NCBI GenBank assembly: GCA_964348095.1
Contig: CAYGBK010000085.1
Coordinates: forward strand, 920-64,919
Direction of reading: 5' to 3'
Origin: an uncultured Thermodesulfobacteriota bacterium
GTDB lineage: Bacteria > Desulfobacterota > BSN033 > WVXP01
DNA: 64,000 nucleotides
A program made the translations under genes and the position numbers. The notes below the pieces were generated by a model, which was not told where the DNA came from, searched no databases, and saw only the letters and a list, made by a program, of their open reading frames with translations. Below are positions 63,224-63,414 of this stretch, piece by piece; the stretch's first letter is position 1; each line of letters starts with the position of its first letter.

Positions 63224-63316
63224 ATGGGGACCACGATGAAGATGTTCGGAAAAGGTTTCTACTTCTATTTTTACTTTTTCTTCCGACGTGGTCTGTCCAT
63301 TCGGCTGGACATTTAG
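63224..63316 (+). promoter_or_regulatory. Leader-peptide ORF with nine consecutive Phe/Tyr codons (MGTTMKMFGKGFYFYFYFFFRRGLSIRLDI); aromatic amino-acid attenuator
   Basis: Codons TTC TAC TTC TAT TTT TAC TTT TTC TTC at 63257-63283. Two terminator hairpins follow, directly ahead of the DAHP synthase gene. Confidence 0.65.
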
Positions 63317-63335
63317 GTAACTTAAAAAACCTGAA

Positions 63336-63414
63336 AGCCGTGGGCAGACCGATGATGCCCACGGCTTTTTTGTTTGAGAGCCGTGGGAGATGTATCCCGC
63401 GGTTTTTCTTTTGG
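63336..63414 (+). terminator. Two tandem hairpins with U-tracts ahead of the DAHP synthase gene
   Basis: H1 is agccgtgggc-agaccgatgat-gcccacggct followed by tttttgtttg. H2 is agccgtggga-gatgta-tcccgcgg followed by tttttcttttgg, then GGAGGG and ATG. Confidence 0.65.

Follow-up and report, generated by a model that had tools for sequence, protein, structure and literature searches.

A predicted Phe/Tyr leader-peptide attenuator with twin terminators upstream of a shikimate operon in an uncultured Thermodesulfobacteriota bacterium

The DNA analysed here is a stretch of 64,000 nucleotides (hereafter the window) from an uncultured Thermodesulfobacteriota bacterium (assembly GCA_964348095.1, contig CAYGBK010000085.1, positions 920 to 64,919 of the forward strand), and our subject is the region between trpD and a 3-deoxy-D-arabino-heptulosonate 7-phosphate (DAHP) synthase gene near its 3' end. 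Coordinates are window positions, and the features described are on the plus strand. The trpD gene (61957-63072, ATG at 61957, stop at 63072; PF02885 and PF00591) is separated by a 353-bp spacer from the DAHP synthase ATG at 63426. Within this spacer are a listed open reading frame (ORF) of 30 codons (63224-63316, MGTTMKMFGKGFYFYFYFFFRRGLSIRLDI), an uninterrupted run of six Phe and three Tyr codons inside it (FYFYFYFFF, 63257-63283), two hairpins with U-rich tails (T1 and T2) and a Shine-Dalgarno (SD) sequence. An original prediction, made from the sequence of the window, had described this leader ORF, its Phe/Tyr run and the twin terminator hairpins as an attenuator of DAHP synthase, and we found all three as described. 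The second hairpin does adjoin the ribosome-binding site, as had been claimed, with the U-run of T2 ending at 63412 and the SD (GGAGGG, 63413-63418) starting at 63413; one coordinate needed correction, the DAHP synthase ATG being at 63426 and not 63427. We are confident, short of certainty, that the region encodes a ribosome-mediated leader-peptide transcription attenuator on a shikimate operon.

The leader ORF has in-frame AUG codons at 63224, 63236 and 63242 and a UAG stop at 63314-63316. Given the base composition of the window, nine-codon runs of Phe and Tyr (here TTC TAC TTC TAT TTT TAC TTT TTC TTC) are expected ~6e-7 times per strand by chance, or ~1e-6 times per window, and the second-longest such run in its six frames has five codons. 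The ORF is enriched in codons for the amino acids tied to the downstream operon of shikimate-pathway and chorismate mutase genes, as in an attenuator. Upstream of it is a putative promoter, with a -35 box TTGACA at 63178-63183, a 17-nt spacer and a -10 box TAGACA at 63201-63206. The TTGACA box is identical in 13 of 13 aligned relatives, among which the -10 position reads TAnnnA/T (TATAAA in locus L081, for example). Elsewhere in the window, five-codon Phe/Tyr runs occur only at 39312-39482 (plus strand, ...SFYYFY...) and 43751 (plus strand, YFFYF), and seem to be chance occurrences.

The 226-nt leader folds far more stably than shuffled sequences (z = -5.27, 0/200 shuffles), and folding of its sub-regions with ViennaRNA, the source of all helix energies given here, predicts two sets of structures that exclude each other. 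In one set, segment 1 (63216-63235, spanning the first in-frame AUG up to the second at 63236) is the 5' strand of a helix with segment 2 (63287-63309, within the leader ORF 3' of the run); this 1:2 helix has an energy of -32.2 kcal/mol in the leader alone. Segments 3 and 4 form T1 (stem 63333-63346 with 63356-63369, U-rich tract UUUUUUGUUU to 63375, -25.5 kcal/mol), a 14-bp stem with core GCCGUGGGCA/UGCCCACGGC and a 9-nt loop. Segments 5 and 6 form T2 (63376-63388 with 63395-63407, -20.7 kcal/mol), a 13-bp stem with a 6-nt loop whose U-run UUUUUCUUUU extends to 63412 and ends directly at the SD. Two predicted intrinsic terminators thus separate the leader ORF from DAHP synthase, the first structural gene. 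In the other set, positions 63289-63306 of segment 2 pair with the 5' arm of T1 to form antiterminator A1 (2:3; 63289-63299 with 63341-63351 and 63302-63306 with 63336-63340, -30.9 kcal/mol), and the 3' arm of T1 (63358-63369) pairs with the 5' arm of T2 (63376-63387) to form antiterminator A2 (4:5; element 63356-63388, -22.1 kcal/mol). The 5' strand of A1 lies inside the ORF, 6 nt past the run and before the stop codon, where a stalled ribosome would leave it free.

When the RNA is folded from the end of the run through the T2 5' arm, A1 and A2 form together (-53.5 kcal/mol) and T1 is wholly displaced; the same outcome is predicted for 8 of 11 relatives, each folded independently. To simulate ribosome stalls, the RNA was folded without the part that reaches up to 12 nt past the A-site codon. 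With the ribosome at run codons 1 to 7, A1 forms fully (-30.9 kcal/mol); at codon 8 it is weakened to -26.7 kcal/mol and at codon 9 to -19.5 kcal/mol. A ribosome halted on the UAG (63314-63316) would mask ~63300-63329, covering the inner portion of the 5' strand of A1 and extending up to the foot of T1. A consensus promoter/terminator scanner called neither T1 nor T2, because its loop limit is 8 nt (the T1 loop has 9) and it needs five T right after the stem (the lower stem of T2 takes part of the U-run). The alternative structures that the original prediction proposed to look for by folding are predicted here, as mutually exclusive terminator and antiterminator pairings.

How might such an element work? 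We infer a transcription start at the conserved promoter, ~10 nt ahead of the leader ORF; the choice of AUG is inferred likewise. With ample charged Phe-tRNA and Tyr-tRNA, the ribosome would clear the run, cover segment 2 (63287-63309) and halt at the UAG at 63314-63316; segment 3 would then pair with segment 4 to form T1, and any polymerase escaping T1 would meet T2. If no ribosome translated the leader, the 1:2 helix would sequester segment 2 and lead to the same terminated outcome (superattenuation). If charged Phe- or Tyr-tRNA were scarce, the ribosome would stall within 63257-63283, and the free segment 2 could take the T1 5' arm into A1. The released T1 3' arm would pair with the T2 5' arm in A2, so that both terminators would be off and the operon read: one stalled ribosome would disarm two terminators, domino fashion. 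The scheme predicts that transcription terminates at T1 and T2 and that limitation of Phe, Tyr or both is what the element responds to; it is built on the observed ORF and run, on the two predicted terminators, on the computed exclusive pairings and their energies, and on the conservation of all of these in relatives. For the relay function of the twin terminators, which draws on modelled folds, our confidence is about moderate; the twin arrangement would most likely lower basal leak while inducibility stays full.

Nine relative contigs were recovered by protein search (DAHP synthase clade, 74-96% identical) and one more (L081, 81%) by a metagenome scan; a scan of genome contigs for DAHP synthase found no relative above 61% identity. 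In 9 of these 10 close relatives (L164, L165, L166, L167, L168, L169, L170, L172 and L081) there is a homologous leader ORF with an in-frame aromatic run, together with the TTGACA box and two hairpins. Examples of these leaders are MGTMMKMLGKGFYFYFYFFFRRGLSIRLDI, MVNEFGRTFYFYFYWFAAMVCPFG, MGTMMKIFGSAFYFYFYYFALMVCPSGWR, MGTMMKMLKRSFWFYFWYFFVMVCPFGGR and MKKGNRFYYFGFYFFGAGVCPSGGG, and the run of L168 reads FWFYFWYFF. Only L164, L167 and L081 have trpD upstream; in the others the upstream position is occupied by a DUF362, PALP or amidohydrolase gene or by a gene on the opposite strand. Since leader and hairpins are kept where trpD is not upstream, they belong to DAHP synthase and are not the trpD terminator. 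The original prediction would have failed had the small ORF lacked conservation or a ribosome-binding site in relatives and had the hairpins simply been the trpD terminator; the comparison found the ORF conserved and the hairpins staying with DAHP synthase.

Segment 2 (GGTCTGYCCATTCGGCTGG) is almost invariant as RNA, with GGTCTGYCC identical in 13 relatives, and yet it is read in two frames: as RRGLSIRLDI in the window and L164, and as MVCPFGWG/GR in L165-L170, L172 and L081. The aromatic run is in frame irrespective of the segment 2 frame, the leader stop falls within ~10 nt of one place, and the remainder of the leader peptide outside the run is not conserved across relatives. Selection therefore appears to act on the aromatic codons and on the RNA segment, as expected for an attenuator, and not on a functional peptide. 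In the tenth close relative, L171 (~2290-2400), the aromatic run YFYFYFYF does not share the frame of the conserved AUG codons, and the reading in their frame is Leu-rich (LVLFLLLFLL). This frame shift is probably an indel of the long-read assembly, because aroD/E is also split on the same contig; alternatively, it may be a genuine switch of the sensed amino acid. We drew no conclusions from this locus.

Conservation of the pairings was scored on a 13-sequence alignment, with partners slid by 1-3 columns as a control. The terminated structure is 87.5% paired (35-48% when slid) and has 12 pairs that change on both sides, a number reached by 0 of 500 shuffles; the antiterminated structure is 89% paired (33-47% when slid), although both structures were taken from the window sequence and the slid control is biased toward them. 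Helix by helix, 1:2 is 82% paired with six two-sided pair changes, T1 is 95.6% paired and was detected in 12 of 12 twin-hairpin loci, A2 is 89.7% paired, and T2 is 86.7% paired with four two-sided pair changes. Regulatory codons and alternative helices are thus both conserved in relatives. MAFFT misaligned T2 of L002, a more distant locus of the wider family, so L002 and the comparable locus L006 were also folded independently. Their arms have diverged to GCCGGUGGCAGG and GCCAUGGGCAG, and A1 and A2 can still form, A2 with energies of -16.6 and -18.0 kcal/mol; judged by sequence, these two loci appear to be the best independent evidence for the relay.

The bias of the slid control is one of several points that weigh against the attenuator and its relay. 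Compensatory change in A1 and A2 amounts to one pair in the 13-sequence alignment, not above shuffles. Scarce compensation is to be expected where every segment has two partners to keep, but it leaves A1 and A2 supported by a conserved ability to pair and not by covariation. In L172, L002 and L006 the equilibrium fold retains T1. A1 (-25 to -35 kcal/mol) forms in these loci while only the T1 5' arm has been made, and A2 (-15.5 to -18 kcal/mol) can form; according to the folding model, the action of A1 in these loci would have to be kinetic. Kinetic formation of the antiterminator is assumed for classical attenuators such as that of E. coli trp. The consensus scanner did not call the promoter, and TAGACA, as the window has it, is a weak -10 box. 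The first AUG of the leader lacks an SD, and the predicted 5' untranslated region is only ~10 nt long. Finally, the host is an uncultured metagenome-assembled genome (MAG), and the element is known here from sequence alone.

What does the element control? The 5' part of the DAHP synthase gene, with its SD, occupies 63413-64000. The enzyme is of type I-beta, with an N-terminal ferredoxin-like regulatory domain (PF18152, DAHP_snth_FXD) ahead of PF00793 (DAHP_synth_1). In the region of the leader and DAHP synthase the window is identical to the MAG contigs JABAOF010000908.1 and WVXX01000063.1 (both labelled "Proteobacteria bacterium"; L161 and L162), on which the operon was read: on the same strand, DAHP synthase (aroF), aroB, an aroD-aroE fusion, aroA, aroK and aroC fused to a chorismate mutase gene. 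The part downstream of DAHP synthase spans 8479-13116 of L161, and its last gene seen encodes a 438-aa fusion of chorismate synthase (PF01264) and CM_2 chorismate mutase (PF01817) (L161 12887-13116, just past the 3' end of the window). The element therefore precedes the whole common aromatic pathway and the branch-point enzyme toward Phe and Tyr. In close relatives, tyrA and pheA (L081, 2985-4569) or pheA only (L168, L169 and L170) follow the same leader and DAHP synthase. The genes under the leader make the precursors of Phe and Tyr. In this class of DAHP synthase, the N-terminal ferredoxin-like domain is the site of feedback inhibition by Tyr or Phe. A separate observation concerns the start of this gene: the public gene call (350 aa) begins at an ATG inside T2 (window 63390-63425; L161 7434-7469). 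The start common to all relatives is the ATG at 63426, after GGAGGG (338 aa, MLVVME...), and the sequence suggests that the deposited annotation is probably 12 codons too long.

Mixed aromatic leaders extend well beyond the close relatives. We scanned all six frames of 160 loci with DAHP synthases 47-81% identical for ORFs that contain [FYW]{5,} and do not exceed 60 codons. Of the 25 such ORFs, 21 lie on the DAHP synthase strand and no more than 1.6 kb upstream, a zone that makes up 11.8% of the search space (binomial p = 2.5e-16). Host labels include Desulfobacterales, Syntrophobacterales, Desulfomonilaceae and many Chloroflexota (Anaerolineae, Promineifilaceae). A GC-rich hairpin with a T-tract follows within ~20-50 nt in all 29 leaders examined; there are two terminators in the clade of the window, in L002 (Desulfobacterales) and in L006 (Syntrophobacterales), and one in the remaining leaders. 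Run compositions include YYYYYY (L025), FFYYYYYWYF (L002), FYFYFYFW and YFFYYYFWW; Tyr is present in nearly all runs, Phe in most and Trp in several. Chloroflexota loci have the leader and a single terminator, then an AroH-type chorismate mutase (CRGVRGA) and then DAHP synthase, a layout seen in L005, L008, L012, L022, L026, L028, L047 and L004; in L012 a prephenate dehydratase gene sits between chorismate mutase and DAHP synthase.

A second element of the same design lies within the window itself. A whole-window scan for leader-like ORFs followed by a terminator gave one other credible case, a Trp leader ORF (MMNRYRFYWWWREKVGICRLMAR, with YWWW including three consecutive Trp codons) at 61742-61813, upstream of trpD and 1.5 kb from the Phe/Tyr leader. 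The whole element spans 61742-61925, with twin hairpins at ~61839-61871 and 61886-61921, and is preceded by a TTGACA box at 61679-61684. The same relay is predicted for it, with energies of -27.0 (A1), -24.2 (T1), -22.0 (A2) and -22.2 kcal/mol (T2), and L164, L167 and L081 have conserved the element, its run there being YWWW or YWWWW. The hairpins of the two elements are collinear and have the same GCCGUGGG arms. What sets the two apart is the codon run, together with a pairing of segment 2 to the T1 loop that each has to itself: in the Trp element AGGGAUUUGCC pairs with GGCAAAUCCCU, and in the Phe/Tyr element GGUCUGUCCA pairs with UGGGCAGACC. In sequence they look like paralogous modules re-targeted to different amino acids. 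From the trpD stop to the Phe/Tyr leader promoter (63073-63177) we found no intrinsic terminator or significant structure (z = -0.10), so Trp-controlled transcripts probably run into T1 and T2, which would link the two controls.

The same absence of structure in the spacer makes T1 and T2 the first terminators met by trpD transcripts, and might suggest that the hairpins do no more than terminate trpD and that the small ORF is a chance frame in a T-rich spacer. We regard this as extremely improbable, given that leader and hairpins are attached to DAHP synthase where the upstream gene differs, that a conserved TTGACA promoter stands between trpD and the leader, and that both the expectation for the run (~1e-6) and the enrichment among relatives speak against a chance ORF. 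The trpD-terminator candidate was rejected as contradicted by the relatives without upstream trpD and by the enrichment test. A functional hydrophobic micropeptide, placed upstream of DAHP synthase only incidentally, is just as improbable. The peptide is indeed strongly hydrophobic and close relatives share its N-terminus (MGTMMKM), but its C-terminal third is in different frames among them, the aromatic run alone is shared outside the close clade, and the conserved N-terminal codons overlap RNA segment 1. Scarcely more probable, in our estimation, is a trans factor that recognises the repeated GCCGUGGG in place of a ribosome, be it tRNA through a T-box, a riboswitch ligand or an RNA-binding protein. 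The motif does occur four times within 1.6 kb, in both attenuators; however, it drifts with compensating changes in L002 and L006, there is no Rfam match at E <= 10 (T-box and known leaders included), and the two attenuators are distinguished only by the codon run (WWW vs FYFYFYFFF) and by their own segment 2/T1 loop. A codon run as the distinguishing element is what a ribosome-read signal predicts.

Two further alternatives accept an attenuator and differ on what it senses or how it terminates. In one, only one hairpin is a regulated terminator, the other is a pause site or a redundancy, and the 4:5 pairing is a by-product of hairpin duplication. Both hairpins carry the 5'-arm motif GCCGUGGG, as tandem duplication would leave; T1 of the Trp element has a tail (CUUUCGUUU) that makes a poor U-tract, and most leaders of the wider family have a single terminator. 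We nonetheless find this explanation quite unlikely, because the twin layout and the 4:5 complementarity survive divergence of the arms in L002 and L006, A2 remains largely paired over the 13 sequences, and both hairpins of the window have good U-tracts. The other alternative, unlikely too but deserving serious consideration, is that the attenuator effectively senses only Phe-tRNA charging and that the Tyr codons contribute little. Six of the nine codons of the run in the window are Phe, and the aroR leader of Corynebacterium glutamicum, the one analogue that has been studied, responds to limitation of Phe and not of Tyr (PMC11802643). A contribution of Tyr is not assured here either, because Tyr availability was without effect on this analogue, and this must be counted against dual sensing. 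On the other side, Tyr codons are kept in nearly all runs of the family across phyla, the main run of L025 is all Tyr, and others add Trp (L168, L002); were Phe alone sensed, such a pattern would be difficult to account for. Dual sensing of Phe and Tyr is thus plausible from the pattern of codons kept in nearly every family member.

The attenuator itself, with Phe/Tyr codons and two terminators on DAHP synthase, is backed by conservation, by alternative structures and by genomic context, and that part of the original prediction stands. It had missed the antiterminator relay, the sister Trp attenuator and the whole-operon scope, and its claim that a mixed Phe/Tyr leader on DAHP synthase is an undescribed arrangement was wrong: the aroR-aroF leader of C. 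glutamicum was published in 2013-2014 (PMC4046766; PMC11802643; PMC8079986). The aroR leader (Phe-Tyr-Phe) upstream of aroF was detected by RNA-seq (Mentz et al. 2013, PMC4046766). The attenuator was studied by Neshat et al. 2014 (J Biotechnol 190:55), whose work is summarised in PMC11802643, cited in PMC8079986 and used in PMC7356990; according to that summary, Phe limitation relieved attenuation, while Tyr availability had no effect. Like aroR, its closest precedent, the element of the window is a short mixed Phe/Tyr leader ORF directly upstream of a DAHP synthase operon, in which stalling would relieve attenuation. Unlike aroR, with its three regulatory codons, it has a run of nine and belongs to another phylum, and it has twin terminators, of which the sources read on aroR describe none. 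The C. glutamicum leader regulates a type I-alpha AroF, not a type I-beta enzyme with a ferredoxin-like domain. The two leaders are most likely analogous and not homologous, alike by function only.

Other classical systems share parts of this design. E. coli pheL-pheA and pheM-pheST (Rfam Phe_leader) likewise combine a Phe-codon leader and a choice of terminator or antiterminator with aromatic genes (PMC3082878, PMC11802643). Those leaders read Phe only, have a single terminator and control the terminal Phe branch or a synthetase, whereas the element of the window precedes the common pathway. As in trpL and hisL of E. coli and Salmonella, helices would be chosen by ribosome position, with superattenuation when there is no translation. 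The his leader also has six segments, which pair as A:B, C:D and E:F or as B:C and D:E, and only its last hairpin terminates. Here, by contrast, the middle hairpin 3:4 is itself a canonical terminator, and the two terminators would be switched together. Aromatic T-box leaders of Firmicutes resemble the element in coupling tRNA charging to terminator readthrough upstream of biosynthesis genes; T-boxes lack a leader ORF and recognise uncharged tRNA by direct binding, and there is no T-box match in the window. A cmscan of 61000-64000 against Rfam at E <= 10 gave only four sub-threshold, unrelated hits (S4-Bacteroidia, drum, TB10Cs5H3 and RFPL3-AS1_2), far below gathering, and at the gathering threshold the whole window matched no leader family, T-box or riboswitch. 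The element therefore falls outside the curated Phe, Trp and other leader families, and outside the T-box family.

To our knowledge, leader-peptide attenuation has been documented mostly in Proteobacteria and Actinobacteria, almost always with one terminator and one sensed amino acid. In the searchable literature we found no report of a long alternating run or of a spread through Desulfobacterota-like bacteria and Chloroflexota, and no leader-peptide attenuator in which a second antiterminator couples two consecutive terminators. Neither an aromatic leader in Chloroflexi or delta-proteobacteria nor a two-terminator attenuator is reported by Seliverstov 2005 or Naville 2010. The long run, the linked twin terminators and the taxonomic spread look undescribed, while the attenuator type itself is well known, and nothing here overturns the current understanding of attenuation. 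On a broader proposal we are evenly divided. It holds that the Phe/Tyr and Trp elements represent an undescribed six-segment relay class, with coupled antiterminators and a swapped sensor module, and that leaders with mixed Phe/Tyr(/Trp) runs, placed ahead of DAHP synthase or chorismate mutase genes, are a widespread regulon signal outside Rfam, in Desulfobacterota-like bacteria and Chloroflexota, which would integrate several aromatic amino acids and control entry into the shikimate pathway.

If the attenuator works as predicted, a leader that senses two aromatic amino acids (three in some relatives) would govern the common aromatic pathway as a whole, its first committed step included. Should the ferredoxin-like domain of this DAHP synthase indeed bind feedback Tyr or Phe, enzyme and transcript would be tuned to the same end products. 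Linked twin terminators would offer a natural route to less basal readthrough with no loss of inducibility, and one that may be reusable in synthetic biology. The pairing of a Trp element with a Phe/Tyr element would show how such switches can be re-targeted by module exchange, and a design common to uncultured Desulfobacterota-like bacteria and many Chloroflexota may provide an annotation rule for aro operons in metagenomes.

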